This document shows, one piece after another, positions 2,061 to 54,530 of a stretch of DNA of 64,000 nucleotides. Positions within the stretch are counted from its first letter, which is position 1, and every line of letters starts with the position of its first letter. This DNA is from Bifidobacterium callimiconis (lineage in GTDB: Bacteria > Actinomycetota > Actinomycetes > Actinomycetales > Bifidobacteriaceae): the NCBI RefSeq assembly GCF_003952005.1, contig NZ_QXGJ01000007.1, positions 29,841 to 93,840 on the forward strand, in the 5' to 3' direction. A program made the position numbers and the translations under genes. The notes beneath the pieces were generated by a model, which saw only the letters and a program-made list of their open reading frames with translations, did not search any database and had not been told where the DNA came from.

Positions 2061-4556
2061 GTGAAAATCAGCACCCTGCTCACCGGTCTGGAGAACCATG
2101 GCGATCACCTCGACGTGACCACCAACGGCGCCAAATTCCAGGTGTATCTGATCGACGAGAACATCATCCGCATCCGCAGCACGTTCAAGGACGAGTTCCC
2201 CGAGGAGCTCAACTACGCGCTCGTCAAGACCGCGTGGGCCGACGCCTCCGACGAGCTCATGGCCGGCGAGCGCACCCGCGTGGAGCCCATCGCCATCGAG
2301 CTGACCGAGCCCGAACCGGGCGTGCACGCCGCGTCCACCGGCAAATACACGCTGCGCATCCACACCGACCCGTTCGCATTCGAGATCGTGGACGAGGCCG
2401 GCAACGTGCTGCACTCCGACCTGCCCGGCCGCTCCTTCATGGAGGACAGCCTCGGCCGCCCCACCCACTACGTGAAGATGGGCGACCACAACTACTTCTA
2501 CGGCTTCGGCGAGAAGAGCGGCGAGCTCAACAAGATCCGCCGTCGCATGCGCATGCACAACACCGATTCGCTCGGCTGGGACGCCTCCAAGTCGGACCCG
2601 CTGTACAAGATGATCCCGTTCTACATCAACTTCGACGCCGAACGGAAGCTCACCCACGGCCTGTTCTACAACAACTCCGCCGACTCCGTGTTCGACATGG
2701 ACTGCGAGCACTCCAACTACTGGCTGCGCTACAGCTACTTCCAGGCCGAGGCCGGCGACATCGACCTGTACTTCATCGGCGGCCCGACCATCAAGGACGT
2801 GGTGGAGCACTACACCGACCTGACCGGCAAGACCGCGATGATGCCGCTCAGCTCCCTCGGCTACATGGGATCCACCATGTTCTACACCGAGCTCGACAAG
2901 GACTGCGACAAGGCTATCGAGGACTTCGTCGACACGTGCGCCAAGTACGGCATCCCCGTCGACGGCTTCTTCCTGTCGTCCGGCTACACGTCGGGCGAGG
3001 ACGGCAAGCGCTACGTGTACAACTGGAACTACGATCGTTTCCCGAGCCCGTCCGGCTTCGTCGAGGCGCTCGAGGAGAAGGGCGTGCAGGTGTCGCCGAA
3101 CATCAAGCCCGGCATGCTCAACACGCATTACCTGACCGACGAGTTCGAAGAGGCGCGCGCCTACGTGCGCACCGCCGACGATTCCGCCTCGCAGGTGGAT
3201 CGCTACTGGGGCGGCCCCGCGCATTTCGTCGACTTCACCAGCCCGGCCGGCCGTGCCAAGTGGAGCGAGCACATGACCAAGCAGCTGCTCGATAACGGCA
3301 TCCGCTGGATCTGGAACGACAACAACGAGTACGAGATCGCCGACAACGACGCCATCACCGAGGCCGAGGGTCTCAAGCGTCCGATCGGCGAGATGAAGCC
3401 GCTCATGAGCACGCTCATGGCCAAGACCGCGCACACCGCGATCGAGGCGTTCGACGCCGACGTGCGTCCGTACGTGACCAACCGTGCCGGCTACGCGGGC
3501 ATCCAGCGCTACGCGCAGACCTGGTGCGGTGACAACGGCACCACGTGGACCAACCTCAAGTACAACGTGCCGACCATCCTCGGCATGGGTCTGTCCGGCG
3601 TGGCCAATCAGGGCGCCGACATCGGTGGATTCGACGGCCACGCGCCCGAGCCGGAACTGTTCGTGCGCTGGGTGCAGAACGGCGTGTTCCAGCCGCGCTT
3701 CTCCATCCACTCGTGCAACACCGACAACACGGTGACCGAGCCGTGGATGTACCCCGAGTACACGCACTACATCGCCGACGCGATCCGTCTGCGCTACCAG
3801 TTGGCGCCGTACTACTACTCGCTGCTGCATGAGGCGTCCGTCACCGGCGCGCCGATCATGCGTCCGCTCGTCTACGAGTTCCAGGACGATCCGAACACGT
3901 GGAACGAGAGCTTCGAGTTCATGATCGGCTCCTCGCTGCTCGTGGCCAACGTGCTTGACAAGGGCGCCGAGTCCATCGACGTGTACCTGCCGGCCGGCAC
4001 CGACTGGTATGACTTCGAGACCCGCCAGTGGCTCGCCGGCGGCCAGACGATCACCGTGCCGGTGACGCTCGCCAGCATCCCGATGTTCCTGCGCGCCGGT
4101 TCGATCGTGCCGCAGTGCCCGGGACTGACCAACCTGCACAACCAGACGATTGACCACCTGACCCTGCTGGTCGAGCCGGGTGAGAAGACCGAGTTCGGCC
4201 TGTACGAGGACGACGGCGTGACCCGCGCCTACGAGCATGGCGACTACCTGAACACCACGGTCACCGTGAACCCGTCCGCCGACGGCGTGGACATCGACTT
4301 CGCCCGCGAGGGCGCGTTCGAGACCCGCGTGAAGACCATGGAACTCGAGGTGCTGTGCCGCCGCATCGCCCCGCTGAGCGCCGAAGTGGCCGGACGTACG
4401 ATCCCGCGCTTCCTCAACTACGACAAGTTCCTCGCCGCCGACGAAGGCTGGTTCTTCGACGGACAGACCCGCAAGGCGCTGGTCCGCTACGCCAACCCGA
4501 ACGGCGACTACCGCGCCAGCCTGGTCTTCAAGGCCAAGGATCTGGTCTCGATCTGA
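2061..4556 (+). CDS. glycoside hydrolase family 31 (alpha-glucosidase/alpha-xylosidase type)
   Basis: GH31 signatures (…IRWIWNDNNE… nucleophile region; …QTWCGDN… acid/base region; GFGEKSG…); RBS aaaggag then GTG at 2061; paralogue of 18107..20680. Confidence 0.85.
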   Translation: MKISTLLTGLENHGDHLDVTTNGAKFQVYLIDENIIRIRSTFKDEFPEELNYALVKTAWADASDELMAGERTRVEPIAIELTEPEPGVHAASTGKYTLRIHTDPFAFEIVDEAGNVLHSDLPGRSFMEDSLGRPTHYVKMGDHNYFYGFGEKSGELNKIRRRMRMHNTDSLGWDASKSDPLYKMIPFYINFDAERKLTHGLFYNNSADSVFDMDCEHSNYWLRYSYFQAEAGDIDLYFIGGPTIKDVVEHYTDLTGKTAMMPLSSLGYMGSTMFYTELDKDCDKAIEDFVDTCAKYGIPVDGFFLSSGYTSGEDGKRYVYNWNYDRFPSPSGFVEALEEKGVQVSPNIKPGMLNTHYLTDEFEEARAYVRTADDSASQVDRYWGGPAHFVDFTSPAGRAKWSEHMTKQLLDNGIRWIWNDNNEYEIADNDAITEAEGLKRPIGEMKPLMSTLMAKTAHTAIEAFDADVRPYVTNRAGYAGIQRYAQTWCGDNGTTWTNLKYNVPTILGMGLSGVANQGADIGGFDGHAPEPELFVRWVQNGVFQPRFSIHSCNTDNTVTEPWMYPEYTHYIADAIRLRYQLAPYYYSLLHEASVTGAPIMRPLVYEFQDDPNTWNESFEFMIGSSLLVANVLDKGAESIDVYLPAGTDWYDFETRQWLAGGQTITVPVTLASIPMFLRAGSIVPQCPGLTNLHNQTIDHLTLLVEPGEKTEFGLYEDDGVTRAYEHGDYLNTTVTVNPSADGVDIDFAREGAFETRVKTMELEVLCRRIAPLSAEVAGRTIPRFLNYDKFLAADEGWFFDGQTRKALVRYANPNGDYRASLVFKAKDLVSI

Positions 4557-13330: not shown

Positions 13331-13402
13331 GCACAGGGCACCCCCGCACGCTCCACCTAATACTTCCGCTACAACTCAACCCACTCAAAGGAGAGAAAAA
13401 CC

Positions 13403-14845
13403 ATGAGTTCCCCAACCACTACCGGAGGCACCGCCGTGCGCCCCTTCGGCATGCGAGACAAGGTCGGCTATCTGTTCGGCGACTTCGGCAACGATTTCAT
13501 GTTTACGTTCGCCAGCTCGTTCCTGATGATCTTCTACACCAAGGTGATGGGCGTGCCCGGCGCCGTGGTCGGCACCCTGTTCCTGATCGCGCGAATCGTC
13601 GACGCATTCGCCGACGTCACCGTGGGCGTGCTCGTAGATAAGGCCCCAGCTACGAAGAACGGTAAGTACCGCGTGTGGATGATGCGCATGGCCGCTCCCG
13701 TGGTCATCTTCTCGTTCCTGATGTACCAGACCTTCGCCATCGGCGCATCGATGGGCGTGAAGATCGTCTACATGTACGTGACATACATCATCTGGGGAAT
13801 CCTGTATTCCTCGGTGAACATTCCCTACAGCTCCATGGCGTCGCTGATCTCGCCCGAACCCGACGACCGTACCAGTCTGTCCACCTACCGTTCCGTGGGC
13901 TCCACCTGCGCCTCGCTGGTCATCGGCGTGGTCGCCCCGCTGATCATCTACTCGGCCGATGCCAACGGCAACCAGATCATCCGCGGCGGCGAGGGCACGC
14001 AGGTGTTCGCTCTGGTGTCCGGCATCTTCGCCGTGTGCGCGTTCCTGTGCTTCTTTGCCTGCTACAAGATGTGCACCGAGCGTGTGAAGCCGGAGGATCA
14101 TCACTCCGATACCGTCGAAGGCGAGCGCAAGTCCACGCTGCACATGATCGGCAACGCGCTGAAGAGCCGTTCCCTGTGGGGCCTGATCCTCATGTCCCTT
14201 TCGGCTACCATCGCCATGCTGTTCCTCATGCAGATGGTCAACTACCTCTACGCCGACTACTTCCGTTCCGCCGGCATGATCTCCCTGACCGTGATGTGCG
14301 GCTCCCTGGCCATGCTCGCCTGCGCGCCGCTGGTGAAGCCGCTGGCTAAGCGTATCGGGCACAAGGGTTGCGCGGTGTGCGGCCAGCTGATCGCCTGCGC
14401 CGCCGTGATCATGCTGTTCGTGCTGCACACCGACGTGCCGATGGTGTTCACCATTGGATACGTAGTCATTTTCTTCGGCGTGGGCATGAGCAACATGGTG
14501 TGCTACGCCATGGCGACCGACACCATCGACGACATCGAGGTCACGCAGAACATGCGCGAGGATGCCACCGTGTACTCGGTGTACTCCTTCGGACGCAAGG
14601 TTGGCCAGGCCATCGCCGGCTGGATCTCCGGCAACGCGCTGACCTGGGTCGGCTACAAGGCCGGCGCCGAGGCGGTGCAGACCGATGCCGTGCGCAACAA
14701 CATCTACAACTTCAGCACGGCGATCCCGGCCGCGGCGTTGGTCATCGGCGTGCTGCTGCTGATCTTCATTTACCCGCTGAACAAGAAGCGCGTCGACTCC
14801 AACGTCGCCGTTCTCAAGGCCAAGCGCGTGGCGGCCGAGGGCTGA
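13403..14845 (+). CDS. GPH-family glycoside/glucuronide:cation symporter
   Basis: GPH N-terminal signature (…DKVGYLFGDFGNDFMF…FLMIFYTKVMG…ARIVDAFADV…); paralogue of 27001..28449; RBS aaaggagag. Confidence 0.8.
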   Translation: MSSPTTTGGTAVRPFGMRDKVGYLFGDFGNDFMFTFASSFLMIFYTKVMGVPGAVVGTLFLIARIVDAFADVTVGVLVDKAPATKNGKYRVWMMRMAAPVVIFSFLMYQTFAIGASMGVKIVYMYVTYIIWGILYSSVNIPYSSMASLISPEPDDRTSLSTYRSVGSTCASLVIGVVAPLIIYSADANGNQIIRGGEGTQVFALVSGIFAVCAFLCFFACYKMCTERVKPEDHHSDTVEGERKSTLHMIGNALKSRSLWGLILMSLSATIAMLFLMQMVNYLYADYFRSAGMISLTVMCGSLAMLACAPLVKPLAKRIGHKGCAVCGQLIACAAVIMLFVLHTDVPMVFTIGYVVIFFGVGMSNMVCYAMATDTIDDIEVTQNMREDATVYSVYSFGRKVGQAIAGWISGNALTWVGYKAGAEAVQTDAVRNNIYNFSTAIPAAALVIGVLLLIFIYPLNKKRVDSNVAVLKAKRVAAEG

Positions 14846-14972
14846 TCCCCATCTTGGCTCTCCTCTCCGAGGCTGAGTCCGTGAAGTAAACGCCAGAGGC
14901 GTTTATAGGAATCAGGCGAGCCGACAGGCAAGCAGATAAAACGCGGCCGAAGGCCGTCCTTTCTTACAGGTT

Positions 14973-15082
14973 GAGCTGTCGGCGTAGCCGACTGAGGGGA
15001 GTGAGCGGTCAAACCCCTATGCGGGCGCATTCTCCCCTCAGTCCGCCTCCGGCGGCCAGCTCCCCTCAAAGAGGGGAGCCAG
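14973..15082. repeat. family-B repeat cluster (gaggggagctgtcggcgtagccgactgaggggag variant)
   Basis: ctcccctca/gaggggag nested palindromes. Confidence 0.75.
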
Positions 15083-15092
15083 ATCTACTCGA

Positions 15093-32582: not shown

Positions 32583-32972
32583 TCCCCCTCAGCCCGCCAT
32601 GCGGCGGCCGGCTCCCCTCAGCGAGGGGAGCCCATGGGGTTTGGGTACGTAGAGGCTTATGACAAATACTCGTGGCTTTCCTCTCTGAGGGGGCAGCCTC
32701 CACTACTCCGGCTCCCTCCTCGAGGGGAGCTGCCGGCAAAGCCGACTGAGGGGAGTGGTGGGTTCATTCTCGTATGGTCGGATTCTCCCCTCAGTCCGCC
32801 GTACGGCGGCCGGCTCCCCTCCAAGAGGGGAGCCACGGGTGCTGAATCTCTTACTTGTCGGCAAGCCTCAACATACCCGAGCCGCGGGTGTTGTGCCTGT
32901 CGGTTCCATTGCAGTGGCTTCCCTTCCTGAGGGGAGCTGTCTGCGTAGCAGACTGAGGAGAGCTGGCACCTC
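32583..32972. repeat. family-B repeat cluster (ctcccctca…gaggggagc nested palindromes, ≥5 units)
   Basis: Read directly. Confidence 0.8.
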
Positions 32973-43347: not shown

Positions 43348-45029
43348 GCCTTCGCGTTTTTTCAGGAGGTTACCCTATCGTAGAGTTCATGGATCTGGAT
43401 TCGCTCGCAAGTGTTGTGTTGTGGGCGATAGTATTGATACTTATGTTCGGTCTTCAGCCGTGGAAAACGATGAGCGGCATGAGGAACGCGATGGAGCATC
43501 GTCCAGACCGGTATTCCGCATCATTGCATATCATCGATATGGATGATGGTATGCACTTCGGCGACAGGACACCAACTACCGCCGGGAAAGGGACGGCTAT
43601 GCAGTCTGGGGCACAGGCAACCAAGCTCGATGATAAGCGGATCGAGCATGTGCGCGCGTTGCGTCGTGCCGCCATTCGTCGTCGTCAGATTCTCGTGGGT
43701 TCGCTGCTCGCCGTCGCCATCGTGGTGTTCGTTCTCGCCCTGCTGCTGCATTTCAGTCCGCTGTTCGCGTTGATTCCGGTTGTGCTTGATGTGATCGTGC
43801 TCGCTCTGGGTGTGCGCGCGTCCAAGCAGGCGCGCGAGTGGGAGCATAAGGTGGCCGCGGCCAAGCGTCGTGCCGCCAAGAAGAGCAAGGCGTCCGGCGC
43901 GGCGGCAAAGGGGGCTCGTAACCGTGGCACGGGTGCCGGTGCTGCCGCAGCGTCCGCTGCAGGCGAGCCCGACGCGCAGACCGCCACCGATGCGATGAGT
44001 GCGCAGGATATTCAGGCCGCGCTCGAGCGTGCCAAGGCGGAGAAGATCGCCGCCCTTCGTGCCCGTGAGCTGGAGCGTCGCGCGCGCGAGGCTGCCGCCC
44101 GTGCGCAGGCACAGTCCGTGATGCCGGATGACGATGAAGAAGATGTGGTTGAGGAGACGCCGTCTGCTGGTGTTTCGTCTGCCGGCGTTCCGGCTGCACA
44201 GTCCGCGCAGTCGCCGGCCACGATCGCTCCGCGCAGCCAGCGCCGCCATGAGACCGGCGAAACCCCGAAGGTCGCTCGCCAGCAGGCTGCAGGCGGTATG
44301 CGACCTGCAACGCACAAGCCCGTTTCGGCGCAGTCCCAGACCGCCGCGACCGCTGACGGTGCTGCCAAGCCCGTCGCCGCCAAGCCTGCGATCAAGGAGA
44401 AGCCGGCCGCCGAACCCGAGGACTTCACCAACGAACTCGAGCGGGTATCGCCGTCCCATGCGCTCGACGCATTCGAACTCGCCGCGAATCAGGATCTCAT
44501 CTCCTTCTCGCTGGGTGCCCCGCGCCATGGCAAGCCGGTCAAGGCCGCCGAACCGCAGAGCCTCGAGATCAAGTCCACCAAGCAGGTGGCCCACGCCGAA
44601 CCGGTGAAGGCCGCACCGGCCGCCGACGATAAGGCCAAGACCTCGTCAGATACGAAGCCCGCCGCTGTCGGATCCGATAAGGCTGGAATGACCTCGCGCT
44701 CCGATGCGAAGGCTGCCGCCGAGGAGCAGCGCTCCGGCCGGCCCGTGCAGGGTTCCTCCGCTCGTGCGCAGCGTGCCGCCCGTCCTGCAGCGAACGCCGC
44801 ATCGAAGCAGACCGCCCCGGTCACGCCTTCCAGCATTCGCCCGGCATCCGTTCCCAAGGACGATGCCGTGTCCCGTCTGGTAGGCGACAAGAAGGTCGAG
44901 GAGGCTGCCGCCCGTCGTGCCGAGCGCAAGGCCGCCGTCGCCGCCCACGCTCCGGTCGCAGCCCCCAAGGAGACCGAGGAATCCCTCGGCGTAAACGTGG
45001 ACGCCGTTCTGGCCCGTCGTCGCGGCTGA
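43344..45029 (+). CDS. hypothetical membrane protein with Ala/Lys/Arg/Pro-rich low-complexity C-terminal region
   Basis: 2-3 predicted TM helices near the N-terminus, then long charged/Ala-rich sequence; GTG 43344 overlaps upstream stop; start uncertain (ATG 43389 possible). Confidence 0.4.
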   Translation: MSLRVFSGGYPIVEFMDLDSLASVVLWAIVLILMFGLQPWKTMSGMRNAMEHRPDRYSASLHIIDMDDGMHFGDRTPTTAGKGTAMQSGAQATKLDDKRIEHVRALRRAAIRRRQILVGSLLAVAIVVFVLALLLHFSPLFALIPVVLDVIVLALGVRASKQAREWEHKVAAAKRRAAKKSKASGAAAKGARNRGTGAGAAAASAAGEPDAQTATDAMSAQDIQAALERAKAEKIAALRARELERRAREAAARAQAQSVMPDDDEEDVVEETPSAGVSSAGVPAAQSAQSPATIAPRSQRRHETGETPKVARQQAAGGMRPATHKPVSAQSQTAATADGAAKPVAAKPAIKEKPAAEPEDFTNELERVSPSHALDAFELAANQDLISFSLGAPRHGKPVKAAEPQSLEIKSTKQVAHAEPVKAAPAADDKAKTSSDTKPAAVGSDKAGMTSRSDAKAAAEEQRSGRPVQGSSARAQRAARPAANAASKQTAPVTPSSIRPASVPKDDAVSRLVGDKKVEEAAARRAERKAAVAAHAPVAAPKETEESLGVNVDAVLARRRG

Positions 45030-45039
45030 TTTTCCCCCG

Positions 45040-45360
45040 GCCCCTCCCTGTGGAGGGGCTGAAGGTGCGAGCGGACTGAGGGCGTGTTCTCTTCTTTCTT
45101 ATCTTTTACTCGTTACGCTTGCATCCTTGCTTTCGCCTCTTTGGGATGCTCCCCTCAGTCTGCCTACGGCAGCCAGCTCCCCTCAGCGAGGGGAGCCAAT
45201 GCTGTAATACTTCGGCTCCCCTCGCCGCCGAGGGGAGCTGTCCGCGTAGCGGACTGAGGGGAGCGTTCCACTCCCTCACGCCCCCATCTACGTTCCATCT
45301 TTTCCGGCTCCCCTCGCCGCCGAGGGGAGCTGTCGGCGAAGCCGACTGAGGGGAGTGCTC
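45040..45360. repeat. family-B repeat cluster (≥4 units) upstream of groES
   Basis: ggctcccctcgccgccgaggggagctgtc[cg]gcg[at]agc[cg]gactgaggggag ×2, plus partial units. Confidence 0.8.
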
Positions 45361-45400
45361 CGCTCCTTCCCCGCCCCATCTACGCTTCCGGCAAACTCCT

Positions 45401-45427
45401 TTAGCACTCAAGTTGGCAGAGTGCTAA
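45401..45427 (+). promoter_or_regulatory. CIRCE operator (HrcA binding site) ttagcactc-N9-gagtgctaa
   Basis: Perfect match to the CIRCE consensus TTAGCACTC-N9-GAGTGCTAA, ~115 bp upstream of groES. Confidence 0.9.
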
Positions 45428-45543
45428 TTTCGCGCTACCATAACGAATAGCGCAAAGGGACGTTCACCCGAGTGATCGTCAGCCTCTCGGCGGCGTTCTG
45501 GCGTGGGAATTGTTCGATTGCTCTTTGAAAGAGGAGGCCCACA

Positions 45544-45837
45544 GTGTCGATTGCACTCACACCGTTGGAAGACAAGATTGTCATCAAGCAGGCCGCTGCC
45601 GAAACCCAGACCGCTTCCGGTCTGTTCATTCCGGACAGCTCCAAGGAGAAGCCGCAGCAGGGCGAAGTCCTGGCCGTGGGCCCGGGCCGTCGCGACGACA
45701 AGGGCGAGCGCATCCCCGTCGATGTGAAGGTCGGCGACAAGGTCCTGTACTCCAAGTACGGCGGCACCGAGGTCAACTACGGCGGCGAGGACTACCTGAT
45801 CGTCTCCGCTCGCGACGTGCTGGCCATCCTGAACTGA
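45544..45837 (+). CDS. groES: co-chaperonin GroES
   Basis: [77 protein letters not shown]…; RBS gaggagg; GTG start. Confidence 0.95.
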
Positions 45838-46121
45838 TTTGATTCAGTCCGACGTCGGTCGTCATGACCGCGTCTTGCACACGTCAAGGCTCCCACCGAA
45901 TCTTCGGTCGGGAGCCTTTTGCATATCCGGGCGCAATCCGCACTATCGTGCCGCACTATCGCGTCAAATTTGGGGCGTCAAATACCCGAAATCCGCTCTT
46001 TGGGGCGCCAACAGGACGAAAATCGCCTCATATTCGGGAAGTTGACGCCCCAAAGAGCAAAAACGGGTATTCCGCGTCACGTTATAGTGGGGAATGACAG
46101 ACTTTTCGATGACGGGAGCCG

Positions 46122-47234
46122 ATGATGGGGGATCAGCATCACGAAGATCGATATCAGAACAGATATCGTGACGCATACGACGACCGTGATCCGCATGACG
46201 GACATTCTGCATACGACGATTCGGCCTTATCCGACCCCGCCGGAATCCCGCAACGCATTATCGACGCGCTCGCCGGTGTGCTGTCCTGCTCGCGCGACGT
46301 GATCGAACTGACCGTGACCGTACTGTGCGCGGGCGGTCATCTGCTGCTCGAGGACGTGCCAGGCGTGGGTAAGACCACACTCGCCCGCGCACTCGGCCAG
46401 TGCGTCGGCGGCACCGTGCACCGCATCCAGTTCACGCCCGACATGATGCCGTCCGACCTGACCGGCGTGAACGTGTACGATCAGCGCACGCAGCGCTTTG
46501 AGTTCCACCCCGGACCGCTGTTCGCCGACATCGTCATCGCCGACGAGGTGAACCGCGCCAACCCCAAGACCCAGTCCGCCATGCTCGAGGCCATGGCCGA
46601 ACGACAGATCAGCGTGGACGGCGTCACCCGCCAGCTGCCCGAACCGTATCTGGTGCTCGCCACGCAGAATCCGATCGAGCTCGAGGGCACGTATCCTCTA
46701 CCCGAAGCGCAGCTTGACCGCTTCATGGCCCGCACATCGATCGGCTATCCCACGCACGACGCCGAACGCGCCATGCTGCTCGGCACGCATGCCGGCGAAC
46801 CGCTGACCGATCTGCGTCCCGTGTGCTCCACGCTCGAGCTGGCCGACGTACTCGCCCGTGTGCGCGCTGTGCATGTGAGCGAGCCGGTGGCCGACTACAT
46901 CGTGTCGATCGTGCGTGCCACCCGCGATCATCCCGACGTGCGATTCGGCGCCTCGCCGCGCGCCGGACTGAACCTGCTGGCCATGGCCCGCGCCCGCGCA
47001 TACATCGACGGCCGTGATTTCGTCACGCCGAACGATGTCAAGACGTTGGCCGTCGTCGTGCTCGCGCATCGCCTCGTACCCCGTTCGATGACCGGATCGG
47101 TCGCATCCGCCGACCAGTGCGCACAGATCGTGGAATCGGTGCTGGAGTCGGTACCAGCGCCGAACGCCGGACGATCCGCCGCCTGGCAGTCCGGCCATTC
47201 GGCACGTTCCGCCCGATCGTCGCGGTCCCGATAG
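46122..47234 (+). CDS. MoxR-family AAA+ ATPase
   Basis: GHLLLEDVPGVGKTTLARALG (Walker A); ADEVNRANPKTQSAMLEAMAERQISV…; LATQNP. Confidence 0.9.
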   Translation: MMGDQHHEDRYQNRYRDAYDDRDPHDGHSAYDDSALSDPAGIPQRIIDALAGVLSCSRDVIELTVTVLCAGGHLLLEDVPGVGKTTLARALGQCVGGTVHRIQFTPDMMPSDLTGVNVYDQRTQRFEFHPGPLFADIVIADEVNRANPKTQSAMLEAMAERQISVDGVTRQLPEPYLVLATQNPIELEGTYPLPEAQLDRFMARTSIGYPTHDAERAMLLGTHAGEPLTDLRPVCSTLELADVLARVRAVHVSEPVADYIVSIVRATRDHPDVRFGASPRAGLNLLAMARARAYIDGRDFVTPNDVKTLAVVVLAHRLVPRSMTGSVASADQCAQIVESVLESVPAPNAGRSAAWQSGHSARSARSSRSR

Positions 47235-47249
47235 GCCCGGTGAACCGCC

Positions 47250-48455
47250 ATGCCCGTCATCCCGCCAGTCCTGCGCCACCGCGATGCGCCGTACCGACAC
47301 GGTATGGTGCGGCCGACCATGCGCCTGATCGTCATGCTGGCGCTCGCCGGCGTGGCGTTGTTCTTCGCGCTGGCGATCGACAGCGCCGCGCTCATGGCCT
47401 TCTCCATCGCCGTGCCCGTGCTGATGGCGGTGTCGCTGATGCTGGCGTTGTTGACGTGGATACTGATCCCGCACATTCAGGCTCCCCTCTCCGAGGGGAG
47501 CTGGCGCCGCAAGGCGACTGAGGGGAGTGATGGCTCAGGTGCTGCTCCCCTCAGTCTGCTGCGCAGACAGCTCCCCTCAGGGAGGGGAGCCAGAGGGATG
47601 GCGGCGGGATGGCTGATTCCGCGCGCGGTGCGTATTGAATATCAATGGTCGCAGCTGGATCAGCATGATCGGGTGATTCGTCGCATCCGTACCATCGACG
47701 AGCCGTCCGATCGGGGCCTGTACCACTTGGACGCCACGGCGATTACTTGGTTCGACGTATTTGGCCTGTGGAAGATCCGACGCCTGATTCGCGAGCGCGA
47801 CGGTCGTGACGAACTGCGGAATCCGCCGGACTCGTCCCTTGCCGATGCCGTCGGCGCCCAACCGATGTCGTCGAGAACCGGCCGTCATGACGACGCCGAC
47901 TCGGCCACGGTCCGGCGATACGAGTCCGGTGACCCGTGGCGCATGATCGCGTGGCGGGCGAGCGCGCACCGCGGCACGCTCATGACTCGCGAAGGCTCTC
48001 GCGACACGCGGTCCGACACGCTGATCGTGATCGACACGGCCACTACGCAAGACCTTGACGCATGCCTTGCCGCGGCGCTGCATCGATGCGTACGATTGCA
48101 CGCGGCCGGCGTGCGTGTGGCCGTGACGGACGGCGAGACGGTATACTCGAACGCCGATGCCATCGAACGGTTTCTGACGGCTGCCCAGTCGGGTGATCAT
48201 GACGTGACTGTCGAGGACCGTGCACGGTCCATCGCGGAGACGCTGAACCGCCTGACCGGATATGTTGCCGTACTGCTGACGCCGGAGTCGAATTCGGATA
48301 TCCCCACGGTTGTGCACACGACGGTGGAAACCTCTGGGGATTCCCAAAATCCCAACGAATCCCGCAATACGAAGAACGCCGGTGAATCCTCGGGGTTGAC
48401 GTTGGAGCAGGCGCTGAGAGCCGCGCTGCCGAAACGCCGTCTTTGCGTGGAGACG
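47250..48455 (+). CDS. DUF58-family protein (MoxR partner) with in-frame repeat-element insertion; 3' boundary not defined by a stop codon
   Basis: Two N-terminal TM helices; DUF58 signature RRYESGDPWRMIAWRASAHRGTLMTRE; reading frame continues without a stop into the transglutaminase-like gene. Confidence 0.55.
47477..47598. repeat. family-B repeat element embedded in-frame in the DUF58 coding sequence
   Basis: gctcccctctccgaggggagctggcgccgcaaggcgactgaggggag…gctcccctcagtctgctgcgcagacagctcccctcagggaggggagc; translated as …APLSEGSWRRKATEGSDGSGAAPLSLLRRQLPSGRGAR… with no stop. Confidence 0.75.
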
Positions 48456-51400
48456 ATGGCGGGGGAGCAGAATACGTGCGACGAGACGCGCAACAGAGCA
48501 TCCGATGATGTGAGTGAGGCTGCCCGCGGCAACGCGAAGACTTCTGATGCGCAGCGTAAGTTGCGGGCGCAGTCTCTCCCTCAGTCATACGACCGCGTGA
48601 CAGCGCCCTTATCGGAGGAAACGCCACACCAGTCTCCCTCTGATGGGGGCCGGCACGGCAGATCTGGGGAAGGGACTCCAACTCCCAGTACAGTGCAAAT
48701 AGCCAACACGGCCTGCCCCAGCGCATCTCCCATCCCCGCACGAATCGTCCAAGCCTTCGCCATACCGGCGTTGCTGGCGCTCGCTGTATGGCAGTCCAGC
48801 GCGCTGTTCGAGGCGGGCTGGTGGACGTGGTTCGCCTACGCCGTGCTGCCGATCGTCGGTCTGGAAGCCGTAATCCCCGCCAAACGCCGGCGAACCATAG
48901 CCCTACTTGGCGTGGCCACCGGTATTCTCGCCGCGCTCGCCGGTGTCGTCCTCGCCGTGCTGCGCATCCGTCAATACGATCTGCAGTCCGCCGTACAAAC
49001 TGCGTCCGCGTCCGCAAACGCATCAGCCACGTCCGGTGCCGCGGCATCGTCAATCCCAACGCCGTCAACCTCGTCAACGCTCGACACATTGCAGGGCATG
49101 AACGCCCAAAACCAGCCCGACGCGCTTCCCGCGGCGGAGAAAACCGGCTTCACCCATATTCTCGACGCGCTCGAATCCGGCGCCACCGAAATCTACGAAC
49201 AGTACGTGCCGGTCGTCATCAGCGGATATGCCGACGCGCTGCTTATCATCGCGGTCGCCGCCATCGCGATCGTTCTACGTCTGCTGCTCGCCGCCCGTCC
49301 GCTGCGCAACATCTGCACGATCCTGCCGATCGTCATCACCGCCGTGGCCTACGCGTGGGCCGGGCAGGAACTCGCCCTGCCATGGATCGCCGCTTGTCTT
49401 GCGCTTGGCGGCATCCTGCTGTGGGCCACGCACGACCATCGCACACGCATGCGCCCGCCGACGCCGATCATCGCATCCGTGCTCGTCGCGGCCATCGCCG
49501 TGGGATTCACGCCCATGGCCGTCACCGCCGCCCAACGCGTGGATATTTCGTTGGGTGATGGCGGCGGCGTGTTCTCCAACGGCACGATCAACCCGATGAT
49601 CGACCTCAAACGCGGCGTGAACCAGGCCGGCGCCACCACCGTGTTCACCTATACCGCCAACAAACGCCTGTACTTCCGTCTCGCCACGCTCGACGACTTC
49701 AACGGCGACACATGGTCGTTCTCCCAACGTCTCAGTGAACGCGGCGGATTCTACGGCGGCACGGCCGACGGTCAGACCGCATCCGAACCGGTCGACGGCA
49801 ACACCAGCGGCAGCGGCCGTTCCGGCTCGTTCGGCAGCGGCGGATTCCAATACTCGTCCTATTCGCCCTACAACCGGTTCGGCTATGATACCCCGCTCGA
49901 CCAGTATCTCGACATCCTCGGCGGTACCAAAACCGGCGGCCTGGAAAGCGCCGACTGGGAAGTCGACACCAAGGTGACCATCGACGCGCTCAACTCCCGC
50001 TTCCTGCCCGTGCCGTCCGGCTCCGTGGACACCAACCAGGTCACCTCATCCGGCGTCTGGCGTCGTGGCGGCGATTCGGCCTTCTACAGCACCAGCGAAG
50101 CCACCACGCCCGGCATGACCTACACCGCCAGCGGCACCTACATTCCGCCCATCCAATCGGCACAGGACTTCTCCACCATCGACGCACTCAACGCGGTGAA
50201 GGACAAGGCGAGCGAGGAGCGCACCTCACAGACCCTCCGCATTCGCATAGCCGACAACGATTCAGGCATCGTGACCGACACCAACGGCAAACGCATCGGA
50301 CGGTTCACGCAGGCCGGGCTCAAACTCGACGACAGCGTGATCGACGAATACGATCTGCAAGGCCGCTCCTGGCTGATCGGCATCCCCGACGTCGTGCCCA
50401 ACGACAGCGAAAGCACCGCCGGCATGACCGCGTACGAAGTGCGCGGCTACACCATCGAACTCAACCCCTCCGCATGGCTGATCCGTCTGATGAGCGGCAT
50501 GTACGGCGCGCTCGGCGCGGGAATGGAAAATCCAGACGGCGAGTTCGCGTTCCTCGTGCCGCCCCTGCAGACTCTGATCAACAACGACGGCACGATCGGC
50601 GGCGGCAGCGTGACTCAGGATGTCGAAAACGGCGACGTTACGTCGCAGAGCACGTCCGACTCGGGCGAAGTCATCGACGAGCAGATCCCCAACGGCTACG
50701 ACGAACTGCCGAACGCCCTGCCCAGCCAGGTGACGGCGATCGTCGACCAGGCCAAACGACAGGGCGTGCCGATCAACGGCTCCGGTGCCGAAAGCCAGAT
50801 CGCATCCATGGAATATCTGGTCAATTACTTCACCAACAACGGATTCACCTACTCGCTCAACGCGCCCGATGGATCCGGCCGCAACAACATGCAGGTGATC
50901 GGCGACTTCCTCGACCGCAAAACCGGCTACTGTGCGCACTACGCGTCCGCGCTCGCCGTGCTCGGCCGGGCCATGGGCGTCAAAACCCGCATGGTGCTCG
51001 GCTACGCGCCAGGCGGCGGCGCCTCCACCGACGGTTCCTACACGGTGGCCAGCAACCAGCTGCACAGCTGGGTGGAGGCGTACATCAACGGACTCGGCTG
51101 GATCCCCTTCGACGTGACCCCGGCCAGCGGCGACGACACCAGCGCGACCGTCGCCGCCGGACAGTCCTCCGCCACGCAAAACGCCGGAAACTCCGCCAGT
51201 TCTCAGTCGCCCTCCACGGAATCCTCCGGCTCCTCGTCGGCCTCGCAAAGCCCGTCGAGCGCGCCGTCCACAAGCGGTGCGAACAGCGACGGTGCGAACA
51301 AGAGCGGCAAAGCCAACAACAGCGACGGCAGTGGCGCAGACGATAACAGTCACGGACTGTCGTCGATGTTCGCCACGTTCAGCTGGTCGGGATTCCTCGC

Positions 51401-52031
51401 CTCGCGGGCGGTCAGAGCGCTCGGTGTCCTGATGCTGCTGGCGTTGGCGTATGCGCTCGTCACGGCCGGCATGTGGCTGCGCGCGTGGCGCCGACGTCGA
51501 CGACTGCGCGTGATCCGCGCCGGCGGGCCGGACATGTGGATCACGGCGTGGCGCGAACTGACCGATTCGGCATGGGATTGGTCAGTACGATGGTCGGCGA
51601 GCGCCACGGAACATGACATCGCCGAAACGATCATGCAATGGATGACCGGGTCGGCGGCAACCGCCGATCAGCCGGTGAACGTCACGGCCGAACCGGCAAG
51701 CCCCTTGACCGCATCGGTGGGAACCGAGGCCGCGCCAACAGGGGAGCGGTCCCCGAACGACGTCGCGATCATGCGTATCGCCGGTAACGCCGAATCCGAG
51801 GCCTATGGCAGTGCCGATCATTCACGTTCGACGTCGGCGGTGAACGCGGCGGTGAACGCGGCGGTGAACGCGGCGGACACCGAACCGGAGCAGGTCATCG
51901 TCATGATTGACGAACTCCGCACCGCATTGGCGAAATCCTGGGCCGGTCACGCCCGGTCATTGCCGCCTGCGATACGCGTCGTACGGTCGGTGTCGTTGCG
52001 GTTGATTCCGCGCTCGCTGTTCCGCCGATGA
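48456..52031 (+). CDS. transglutaminase-like (TgpA-type) membrane protein: DUF3488-like TM region, TGc core, C-terminal TM + DUF4129-like region
   Basis: ≥6 TM helices 48.7-49.5 kb; TGc motif …KTGYCAHYASALAVLGRAMGVKTRMVLGY…NQLHSWVEAYINGLGWIPFDVTP; start at GGAG-N4-ATG 48456 is a guess, no upstream stop in frame. Confidence 0.55.
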   Translation: MAGEQNTCDETRNRASDDVSEAARGNAKTSDAQRKLRAQSLPQSYDRVTAPLSEETPHQSPSDGGRHGRSGEGTPTPSTVQIANTACPSASPIPARIVQAFAIPALLALAVWQSSALFEAGWWTWFAYAVLPIVGLEAVIPAKRRRTIALLGVATGILAALAGVVLAVLRIRQYDLQSAVQTASASANASATSGAAASSIPTPSTSSTLDTLQGMNAQNQPDALPAAEKTGFTHILDALESGATEIYEQYVPVVISGYADALLIIAVAAIAIVLRLLLAARPLRNICTILPIVITAVAYAWAGQELALPWIAACLALGGILLWATHDHRTRMRPPTPIIASVLVAAIAVGFTPMAVTAAQRVDISLGDGGGVFSNGTINPMIDLKRGVNQAGATTVFTYTANKRLYFRLATLDDFNGDTWSFSQRLSERGGFYGGTADGQTASEPVDGNTSGSGRSGSFGSGGFQYSSYSPYNRFGYDTPLDQYLDILGGTKTGGLESADWEVDTKVTIDALNSRFLPVPSGSVDTNQVTSSGVWRRGGDSAFYSTSEATTPGMTYTASGTYIPPIQSAQDFSTIDALNAVKDKASEERTSQTLRIRIADNDSGIVTDTNGKRIGRFTQAGLKLDDSVIDEYDLQGRSWLIGIPDVVPNDSESTAGMTAYEVRGYTIELNPSAWLIRLMSGMYGALGAGMENPDGEFAFLVPPLQTLINNDGTIGGGSVTQDVENGDVTSQSTSDSGEVIDEQIPNGYDELPNALPSQVTAIVDQAKRQGVPINGSGAESQIASMEYLVNYFTNNGFTYSLNAPDGSGRNNMQVIGDFLDRKTGYCAHYASALAVLGRAMGVKTRMVLGYAPGGGASTDGSYTVASNQLHSWVEAYINGLGWIPFDVTPASGDDTSATVAAGQSSATQNAGNSASSQSPSTESSGSSSASQSPSSAPSTSGANSDGANKSGKANNSDGSGADDNSHGLSSMFATFSWSGFLASRAVRALGVLMLLALAYALVTAGMWLRAWRRRRRLRVIRAGGPDMWITAWRELTDSAWDWSVRWSASATEHDIAETIMQWMTGSAATADQPVNVTAEPASPLTASVGTEAAPTGERSPNDVAIMRIAGNAESEAYGSADHSRSTSAVNAAVNAAVNAADTEPEQVIVMIDELRTALAKSWAGHARSLPPAIRVVRSVSLRLIPRSLFRR

Positions 52032-53174: not shown

Positions 53175-53293
53175 TTCCCTCCCTCAGTCACGCTTTGCGT
53201 GACAGCTCCCTCCCTCGGAGGGAGCACGAGGATAAGGAGCGTGTGCTCCCTCCCGGGGAGGGAGCTGGCCGCCGCAGGCGGACTGAGGGAGGG
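53175..53293. repeat. family-A long repeat overlapping the annotated 5' end of the murB ORF
   Basis: ccctccctcagtcacgc…gcgtgacagctccctccctcggagggagc…gtgctccctcccggggagggagctggccgccgcaggcggactgagggaggg. Confidence 0.8.
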
Positions 53294-53306: not shown

Positions 53307-54530
53307 ATGGTGGGCCATATGACTTCTCCTACTTTTGCGGATCTGACCACCATCGGCGTAGGCGGATCCATCGCACGTTTCATTGAACCCGACTCCCGCG
53401 TGGGCGTGATTGAGGCCGTCGAGGACGCGGACGATCGCGGCGTGCCGCTGTGCGTCATCGGCGGCGGCTCCAACATGCTGGTCAGCGATGAGCCGTTCAT
53501 GGGATTCGTCGTCCGTGATGCGAGACGATCCATCGGTGTTCCCGACGAAGTTGCCCCTGTCGAAGGCGACGACCGCACCGTACACGTGAGCGCCGAGGCT
53601 GGTACGAACTGGGATGACCTCGTCGAATTCTGCGTGCGACTCGGTCTGGAAGGCGTAGAAGGACTGTCCGGCATTCCCGGAACCGTGGGCGCGTCCGTGG
53701 TGCAGAACATCGGCGCCTACGGCCAGGAGGTCGCCGACAGCGTGGATTCCGTAGAGGTGTGGGACCGTGAAACCAAGAAGGTCGTGGAACTCACACCCGC
53801 CGATCTGCATTTCGGATACCGCACGTCGGCGCTCAAGTCGAGCATGTACCAGGCGCCCGCAACGCCTGCCGACAAGTATTTCCCCACACCGCGATACGTG
53901 GTGCTGTCGGTCACGTTCGCGCTGCGTCACAGCGCCACCGGTGTGGTCAACGTCGGTCAGCTCGCCCGCGCGCTCGGCGTGGAGACCGGAACCCGCCTGG
54001 AAACGCAGGCCATTCGTGACGCCGTACTCGCCGTGCGTGCCGGCAAGGGCATGCTCGAGGATCCCAACCGTTACGCCTCGCCGTGGATGCGCGGCACCAA
54101 GGAGGACCGCACCATCGCGGCGGCCATGGATGCGCTCAAGGCCGTGAACGGGTCCACCGATCCCGACTACAACCGTCACAGCTGCGGCAGCTTCTTCATG
54201 AACCCCGTGCTCACCGCCGATGCGGCCGCCACCCTTCCCGAGGATGCTCCCCGATTCGCTGCGCCTCTGCCCGACGGCAGCGGCACGCAGGGAGTGAAGA
54301 CCTCCGCTGCCTGGCTGATCGATCATGCCGGATTCCATAAGGGATTCGCCGTGCGCGAGGGCGCCGCCGCGTCGCTGTCCACCATGCACACGCTGGCGCT
54401 CACCAACCGTGGATCCGCCACCGCAGCCGACGTGGCCGAACTCGCCCGCACCGTGCAGAACGGCGTCGAATCCGCGTTTGGCGTGCGTCTGGTGCCCGAG
54501 CCCGTGGCCATCGGCATCGATCTGCGCTGA
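53307..54530 (+). CDS. murB: UDP-N-acetylenolpyruvoylglucosamine reductase
   Basis: FAD-binding …PLCVIGGGSNML…; start placed after the repeat at MVGHMTSPTF. Confidence 0.85.
   Translation: MVGHMTSPTFADLTTIGVGGSIARFIEPDSRVGVIEAVEDADDRGVPLCVIGGGSNMLVSDEPFMGFVVRDARRSIGVPDEVAPVEGDDRTVHVSAEAGTNWDDLVEFCVRLGLEGVEGLSGIPGTVGASVVQNIGAYGQEVADSVDSVEVWDRETKKVVELTPADLHFGYRTSALKSSMYQAPATPADKYFPTPRYVVLSVTFALRHSATGVVNVGQLARALGVETGTRLETQAIRDAVLAVRAGKGMLEDPNRYASPWMRGTKEDRTIAAAMDALKAVNGSTDPDYNRHSCGSFFMNPVLTADAAATLPEDAPRFAAPLPDGSGTQGVKTSAAWLIDHAGFHKGFAVREGAAASLSTMHTLALTNRGSATAADVAELARTVQNGVESAFGVRLVPEPVAIGIDLR

Follow-up and report, generated by a model that had tools for sequence, protein, structure and literature searches.

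Within the window, the 64-kb stretch of Bifidobacterium DNA analysed here, a palindromic repeat lies in the coding sequence of a DUF58 protein. Is this repeat an insertion that is translated as part of the protein, as the RPEs of Rickettsia are, or does the gene start downstream of it, leaving the upstream membrane region as a separate small ORF or a decayed end? The first-pass annotation had raised both possibilities. The host ORF begins 15 nt after the stop codon of a MoxR-type ATPase gene (Table 1), and the same MoxR-then-DUF58 gene order is found in orthologous loci. DUF58 and the TgpA-like transglutaminase are usually separate genes in MoxR operons; in all four Bifidobacterium species examined (the window, L001, L002 and L003) the two are fused in a protein of 1400–1600 aa. 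Pfam places DUF58 at residues 221–269 of the host protein, TgpA_N at 507–830 and Transglut_core at 1182–1288, and no NCBIfam model matches it. The DUF58 match is barely above its gathering score (23.6 versus 23.4 bits), the AAA_3 MoxR gene adjoins upstream, and the DUF58 stretch containing RRYESGDPWRMIAWRASAHRG is invariant in four species. GC at the three codon positions of the ORF is 0.61/0.54/0.79 (GC3 0.79). A gene call recorded in a second assembly, GCA_018555655.1, starts at window 47319 (M24), encodes 1570 aa and reads through the repeat; no record of the exact 1593-aa product was found, because the recorded call starts at M24.

Table 1. Features of the host locus and repeat-bearing genes elsewhere; positions are those of the window unless a locus is named.
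Feature	Position	Strand	Basis
MoxR-type AAA+ ATPase gene, 370 aa	46122..47234	+	Pfam AAA_3 8.1e-63, AAA_lid_2 5.1e-21
Host ORF, 1593 aa: two-TM anchor, DUF58, TgpA_N, transglutaminase core	47250..52031	+	ORF list, Pfam
Two N-terminal TM helices, residues ~25-43 and ~47-75	47322..47474	+	Kyte-Doolittle 19-residue means 2.0-2.5
90 nt (30 codons, H75-L104) missing from B. vansinderenii orthologue	47471..47560	+	DNA alignment, columns 222-311
Left repeat unit	47480..47527	+	covariance-model match 47477-47527, 62.3 bits, E 3.2e-13
Left unit hairpin 1, GGCTCCCCTC-TCC-GAGGGGAGC		+	unit alignment and consensus structure
Left unit hairpin 2, GGCGCC-GCAA-GGCGAC; tail TGAGGGGAG		+	unit alignment and consensus structure
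Spacer between units, 17 nt, TGATGGCTCAGGTGCTG	47528..47544	+	sequence
Right repeat unit, inverted	47545..47591	-	covariance-model match 47545-47594, 72.7 bits, E 8.4e-16
Internal ATG (M117)	47598..47600	+	8 nt past repeat-derived GGGAGGGGAG stretch
DUF58 core including RRYESGDPWRMIAWRASAHRG	47910..48056	+	PF01882 23.6 bits versus gathering 23.4, E 3.4e-5
Lhr helicase gene	L053 880-4632	-	human-gut metagenome; in-frame units at 3623-3672 and 2451-2562
S9/S15 peptidase gene	L055 12475-14409	-	human-gut metagenome; in-frame doublet 13385-13506
P-type ATPase gene	L099 6073-8688, L100 1-1623, L120 5144-6337	-	in-frame repeat

The palindrome proved to be real. Its core spans 112 nt (window 47480–47591), so that the in-frame repeat first assigned to 47477–47598 stands but its extent does not, and it forms a doublet of two ~50-nt units in inverted orientation. 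The outer inverted arms (47477–47511 and 47560–47594) are 83% complementary, and the inner palindrome (47516–47527 and 47545–47556) is complementary at 12/12 positions. RNA folding of 47470–47605 gave −99.1 kcal/mol, compared with −64.3 ± 4.3 kcal/mol for shuffled sequences (z = −8.07), and 0 of 200 shuffles folded as well. Together with the intergenic doublets at 32707–32837 and 14949–15083 it belongs to a set of inverted doublets that form long hairpins of −73 to −99 kcal/mol; every sub-hairpin of the in-gene copy is perfect, no other doublet measured is as stable (−99 versus −83 and −73 kcal/mol), and its spacer is shorter than those of the intergenic doublets (27–37 nt). An Rfam scan of 44500–48500 returned no relevant family, only a chance miRNA match. 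Inverted ends are present, and no target-site duplication was seen in the flanks of eight repeat copies.

The element is a member of a repeat family, as the first-pass annotation had proposed under the name family B. A covariance model of the unit was built from 10 aligned ~50-nt units of the window, and it detected ~35 units in the 64 kb at E < 1e-3, falling into three sequence subfamilies, GGCTCCCCTC.., GTGCTCCCTCC.. and CCTTCCCCTT... Both halves of the in-gene doublet were among the ten input units, so their matches (E about 1e-13 for the left and 1e-16 for the right, the top-scoring unit within the window) are partly by construction; independent copies from B. vansinderenii and metagenome loci scored 57–73 bits. 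Each unit consists of hairpin 1 (GGCTCCCCTC-loop-GAGGGGAGC), hairpin 2 (GTCnGC-loop-GCnGAC) and the tail CTGAGGGGAG, with the blocks GAGGGGAGC and CTGAGGGG invariant across the unit alignment. RNAalifold predicted 13 pairs for this two-hairpin unit and a compensatory change in hairpin 2, where one pair occurs as CG (4), UA (3) and GC (2), and the tail covaries with the arms of hairpin 1 between the GGCTCCCCTC.. and GTGCTCCCTCC.. subfamilies. The pattern given earlier for family B (GGCTCCCCTC..GAGGGGAGCTG..hairpin..CTGAGGGGAG) is thus found here both as a two-hairpin structure and as a model match.

Where do the other copies lie? Related copies occur near 7.4, 15.0, 32.6–33.0 and 45.1–45.4 kb (BLAST against the window and motif listing), and according to a GC3-based gene map all other window units fall outside predicted genes. 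The unit pair at 53178–53292 reaches into the next ORF only where that ORF extends upstream of its called start; the gene, MurB-family by Pfam, starts at window 53319 in the gene call of the sister assembly. Most of the other units begin 12–260 nt past the stop codon of a same-strand gene, and single units are nearly all forward at this distance downstream of a + strand gene. Examples of the units in the window lie at 1197, 4709, 13278, 20692, 23396, 26352, 26648, 28502, 30581, 33427, 41864, 53241, 58158 and 62376. Three units of one subfamily (45149–45355) sit in the 515-nt gap directly upstream of groES (45544), and a single unit occupies the corresponding position in B. vansinderenii (L008 7759–7813), indicating that some intergenic copies are common to both species. 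A few units occur in B. vansinderenii and none in the B. tissieri-group loci. With about one unit per 2 kb of the window the family is very dense, and it apparently has no name; a literature search of limited coverage found no description of the family or of its coding insertions, in line with the earlier remark that such insertions are undescribed for bifidobacterial repeats.

ORF 47250–52031 renders the element as ...IQAPLSEGSWRRKATEGSDGSGAAPLSLLRRQLPSGRGARGM... with no stop, exactly as quoted in the first-pass annotation; 1479 codons follow the insert, and the 4.8-kb ORF is intact. The core runs from the last base of Q77 through A114 and adds ~38 residues, close to the ~40 first estimated, which are hydrophilic, net positive and rich in Gly, Ser, Arg, Ala, Leu and Pro. 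The left unit contributes APLSEGSWRRKATEGS and the right unit, in the frame of the gene, APLSLLRRQLPSGRGA. Two of the three forward frames are stop-free in this doublet and in most full copies, so survivable insertions should not be rare, and the open read-through by itself is unremarkable. The insert follows the two hydrophobic segments and precedes the DUF58 core identified by Pfam, the location originally described. An AF2 single-sequence model placed helices at residues 20–41 and 47–76 (block pLDDT about 62–84); in the same model the mean pLDDT was 40.9 and the insert was below 50, only the TM helices being moderately confident. Because the protein has an Arg-rich N-terminus followed by two helices, the repeat-derived segment should be cytoplasmic, and on this predicted topology the linker as a whole probably is.

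Relatives of the host protein were sought at both the protein and the DNA level. Homology searches with the proteins of 47250–48689 (first 480 aa) and 47598–48251 (DUF58 core) returned no match, and a protein-based metagenome scan yielded no relatives of the host protein; the searched protein index seems blind to the DUF58-TgpA family, since orthologues exist in NCBI assemblies. A genome scan recovered the orthologous loci of three species, B. vansinderenii, B. tissieri and B. catulorum, and look-ups with the window's MoxR and GroES proteins supplied further contigs resembling B. tissieri and B. vansinderenii, together with GCA_018555655.1. The resulting sets comprise L001, L008 and L010 for B. 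vansinderenii, L002, L006, L007, L009 and L012 for the B. tissieri group, and L003 for B. catulorum. All orthologues are fused DUF58-TgpA proteins, 1403–1562 aa in the three other species, with the same two-helix N-terminus, indicating that the gene starts upstream and that the TM part is genuine.

This alignment bears directly on the possibility that translation starts at the internal ATG, which lies at 47598 and not at 47595 as first given. Here, a repeat-derived GGAGG-like ribosome-binding site would drive initiation and the upstream TM region would be a decayed end or a small ORF; a second version takes the open frame for a sequencing or assembly artefact. The spacing of the repeat-derived stretch to the ATG would suit the former, and the corresponding residue in B. 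vansinderenii is likewise Met. However, four species, those free of the repeat among them, have conserved the two-helix N-terminus in frame and joined without a break to the DUF58 core, the −99 kcal/mol stem sequesters the putative ribosome-binding site, and in B. vansinderenii the GGGAG-to-ATG spacing is about 14 nt. An artefact is contradicted by GCA_018555655.1, an independent assembly of the same species with an identical insert and an identical open frame: over 16,294 positions it has 36 differences from the window, none of them in the insert, and shows neither a frameshift nor a stop in the repeat. Taken together, these two explanations are very improbable. Initiation at M117 was rejected on the orthologue alignment, which keeps the upstream TM region, and the artefact on the second assembly. 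The in-frame repeat is therefore confirmed as an observation, the reading of it as an RPE-like insertion is supported, and the downstream start is rejected.

The orthologues that lack the repeat support the reading of the site as an insertion of an otherwise intergenic element. In the B. tissieri group and B. catulorum the two-helix anchor and the DUF58 core are joined by a linker without the repeat, and the covariance model found zero units over these loci. Relatives without the insert thus exist, and they have kept the TM segment. From TM2 to QW(S/T)QLDQ the linker measures 57–58 aa in the window, compared with ~40 aa in B. tissieri and B. catulorum, where the sequence is unrelated, and ~30 aa in B. 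vansinderenii; the linkers of these species do not align with one another. The B. vansinderenii linker holds GCGCAGACAGCTCCCCTCAGGGAAGGGAGCC (RRQLPSGKGAK) at the equal site and in the equal frame, identical to the right arm of the window element at 33 of 35 positions. This unit is truncated: it matches model positions 4–40 of 50 (L001 4219–4252, 27.9 bits), ends inside hairpin 2 and carries a stem mismatch, and the remnant folds at −27.8 kcal/mol (z about −2).

Such a truncated unit is better explained by deletion than by insertion. The B. vansinderenii orthologue lacks 90 nt relative to the window (Table 1), and imperfect 7-nt direct repeats (CCGCACA and CTGCGCA) flank the junction. An in-frame loss of these 90 nt is the simplest explanation. 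If it is correct, the window species and B. vansinderenii inherited the doublet from their common ancestor, and from these sequences the insertion is probably older than the split between the two. The DNA around the insert is 10–18% diverged between them.

We consider it probable that the insert is a tolerated, RPE-like passenger in a permissive cytoplasmic linker of the DUF58-TgpA protein. According to this model, a doublet of a bifidobacterial REP-like repeat would have become fixed within the first 350 nt of the MoxR-associated gene, probably before the split from B. vansinderenii, having either landed in an open frame or been trimmed to fit one, with the downstream frame left intact. The length of the core, 112 nt, is not divisible by 3, which counts against this account. 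Translation would add the ~38 hydrophilic residues to the linker between the two-helix anchor and DUF58, and B. vansinderenii would later have lost 30 codons by an in-frame deletion between the short direct repeats across the hairpin. Since neither the length nor the sequence of the linker is constant from one species to another, the protein is most likely still functional, with the insert as a near-neutral passenger in a length-tolerant segment. We infer the neutrality of the insert, its topology, the order of these events and the production of the protein; for a functional product, the intact ORF, its GC3 and the allele shared with a second strain give indirect support.

The stability of the hairpin suggests a different possibility, in which translation is incidental and the in-ORF hairpin, 243 nt past the moxR stop, acts in RNA as an intra-operon decoupler, raising MoxR relative to DUF58-TgpA by pausing, by partial termination or as a barrier to 3′-exonucleases. 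The stem-loop is very stable and wholly intact, and most window units occupy the usual place of a 3′ stabiliser or terminator, forward and shortly downstream of a same-strand stop. Since the gap between moxR and the DUF58 gene is just 15 nt, the permissive linker would be the nearest available site. Moreover, transcript ends in B. breve frequently coincide with GC-rich stem-loops that lack a T tract (PMC5746004). However, B. vansinderenii has lost most of the hairpin, which was never present in B. tissieri and B. catulorum, whose operons are laid out in the same way; the stem is not followed by a run of T, and a promoter and terminator scan flagged nothing at the element. We regard a role of this kind as unlikely.

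The composition of the linker raises a further alternative, namely that the repeat-encoded Arg/Gly/Ser-rich peptide has been exapted as a spacer, an interaction segment or a membrane-proximal segment that the DUF58-TgpA protein of this lineage needs. Without the repeat residues the linker would be only ~19–21 aa in the window and B. vansinderenii, compared with ~40 aa in B. tissieri and B. catulorum, so the repeat may make up the linker length; the net positive charge would fit a cytoplasmic, membrane-proximal position, and a B. longum ATPase discussed below uses equal frames of the repeat (APLSEGS.. and APLS.LR.QLPS.RGA). Set against this, B. vansinderenii does well with 30 fewer codons, and the shared frames are simply the stop-free ones, a Lhr helicase and an S9 peptidase using another. 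A search of 1.84 billion cluster representatives with the 51-aa insert peptide gave no match at E ≤ 0.001, the power being low with so short a query. The codon-position GC of the insert (0.68/0.74/0.66) is not gene-like and differs from that of the host gene, as would fit recruited non-coding DNA. Exaptation is quite improbable, and both it and initiation at 47598 are less likely than an RNA-level role.

The tolerated-passenger reading nevertheless has to accommodate the age of the element. An old insert with perfect stems between flanks that have diverged by 10–18% would imply selection on the structure, gene conversion from other copies or a more recent second insertion, the more so as the B. 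vansinderenii remnant has already gained a stem mismatch, and if the insert is indeed old, its intactness points to something other than plain neutrality.

A large share of RPE-1 copies are intragenic, and in this respect the Bifidobacterium elements differ, with in-gene copies being exceptional (1 of ~20 window clusters, and ~4% of units among the metagenome matches listed). According to passages in PMC3184786 and PMC3733652, RPEs (Ogata et al, 2000) are ~100–150-nt palindromic repeats that lie in frame in ORFs, the product probably being functional. As far as those passages describe them, the likeness to our element consists of an in-frame insert of ~30–50 residues away from the conserved core, with related genomes carrying an insert-free gene. 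The sequences are unrelated, the hosts belong to Alphaproteobacteria and Actinomycetota, respectively, and the Bifidobacterium element is modular, its ~50-nt units being paired here as a doublet and found elsewhere as single copies; the comparison is thus one of functional class alone and claims no sequence membership. The REP elements of Proteobacteria, of which occasional copies lie inside genes (PMC3733652), resemble the family in form: REP/BIME/REPIN sequences are also short, GC-rich, imperfect palindromes, very dense and mostly just 3′ of ORFs, with inverted doublets that form a larger hairpin, several subfamilies per genome and occasional copies inside ORFs. They differ in that the Bifidobacterium unit has no terminal GTAG/CGTC tag of the RAYT-type REPs, GTAG being found only in some hairpin-2 loops, and consists of two hairpins and a tail in which the 3′ arm of hairpin 1 recurs. 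ORF-fusing MITEs include Correia/NEMIS, RUP/BOX/SPRITE and BRE of Bordetella (PMC3184786); these share with it small size, non-autonomy, inverted ends and open frames fusible into genes, whereas the Bifidobacterium units are far shorter than typical MITEs and lack a target-site duplication in the eight sets of flanks.

In-frame copies are not confined to the DUF58 gene. The exact pattern GAGGGGAGCTG-N12-16-CTGAGGGGAG was found in at least 120 human-gut metagenome stretches, with a median GC of 0.60 among the matches listed. Among the 130 matches listed, 114 lay outside coding-like ORFs and ~11 at the extreme 5′ edge of such ORFs, leaving a handful that were truly internal, with Pfam domains on either side. 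In a Lhr helicase gene (L053) one unit lies in the interval from WH_Lhr to DEAD_assoc, with a weaker doublet at a second site beyond it; an S9/S15 peptidase gene (L055) carries a doublet. A P-type ATPase gene of Bifidobacterium longum (e.g. WP_058062652.1) carries the repeat within its Hydrolase (HAD-like) Pfam match. At 90% identity the protein falls in a cluster of 1556 members, and lengths of 841, 858 and 862 aa occur among the 15 members listed. The 841-aa alleles have one unit, STAPLSEGSCRQKRLRDAVEG, and the 858- and 862-aa alleles a doublet, STAPLSPLRGQLPSERGAEKSELAPLSEGSCRQKRLRGAVEG, the one-unit and doublet forms differing by 17 aa, or 51 nt, in frame. The alleles were studied as proteins P0003, P0005 and P0007. 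This variation indicates that inserts can change in length without destroying the ORF; the window and B. vansinderenii differ in a similar way. In-frame coding copies of the family are rare yet recurrent, with a unit number that varies while the gene stays unbroken.

The survival of in-frame palindromes is a textbook curiosity from Rickettsia, known also for some proteobacterial REPs and MITEs, and the finding of an in-frame repeat opens no new mechanism. Its importance comes mainly from recurrence across Bifidobacterium genes, those of B. longum included, which, with the length-polymorphic ATPase alleles, extends the phenomenon to an important gut genus. For annotators, such segments are repeat-derived and not conserved protein motifs, and they offer natural insertion-tolerant sites in DUF58, ATPase, Lhr and peptidase proteins. 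It is conceivable, though distinctly unlikely, that bifidobacterial REP-like units are a recurrent RPE-like source of new peptide segments and strain-level length variation in conserved proteins, here DUF58-TgpA, the B. longum P-type ATPase, a Lhr helicase and an S9 peptidase, with at least some in-gene copies kept for function. If true, such copies could be in-ORF RNA hairpins that tune operon expression or selected linkers, and this would explain why the window structure is perfect although the insertion seems to be older than the species.

The comparison with GCA_018555655.1 also revealed a feature away from the insert. Thirty-four of the 36 differences from the window sit in 53411–53804, within the MurB-family gene, at spacings that are multiples of 3, and this cluster looks like a strain recombination tract.
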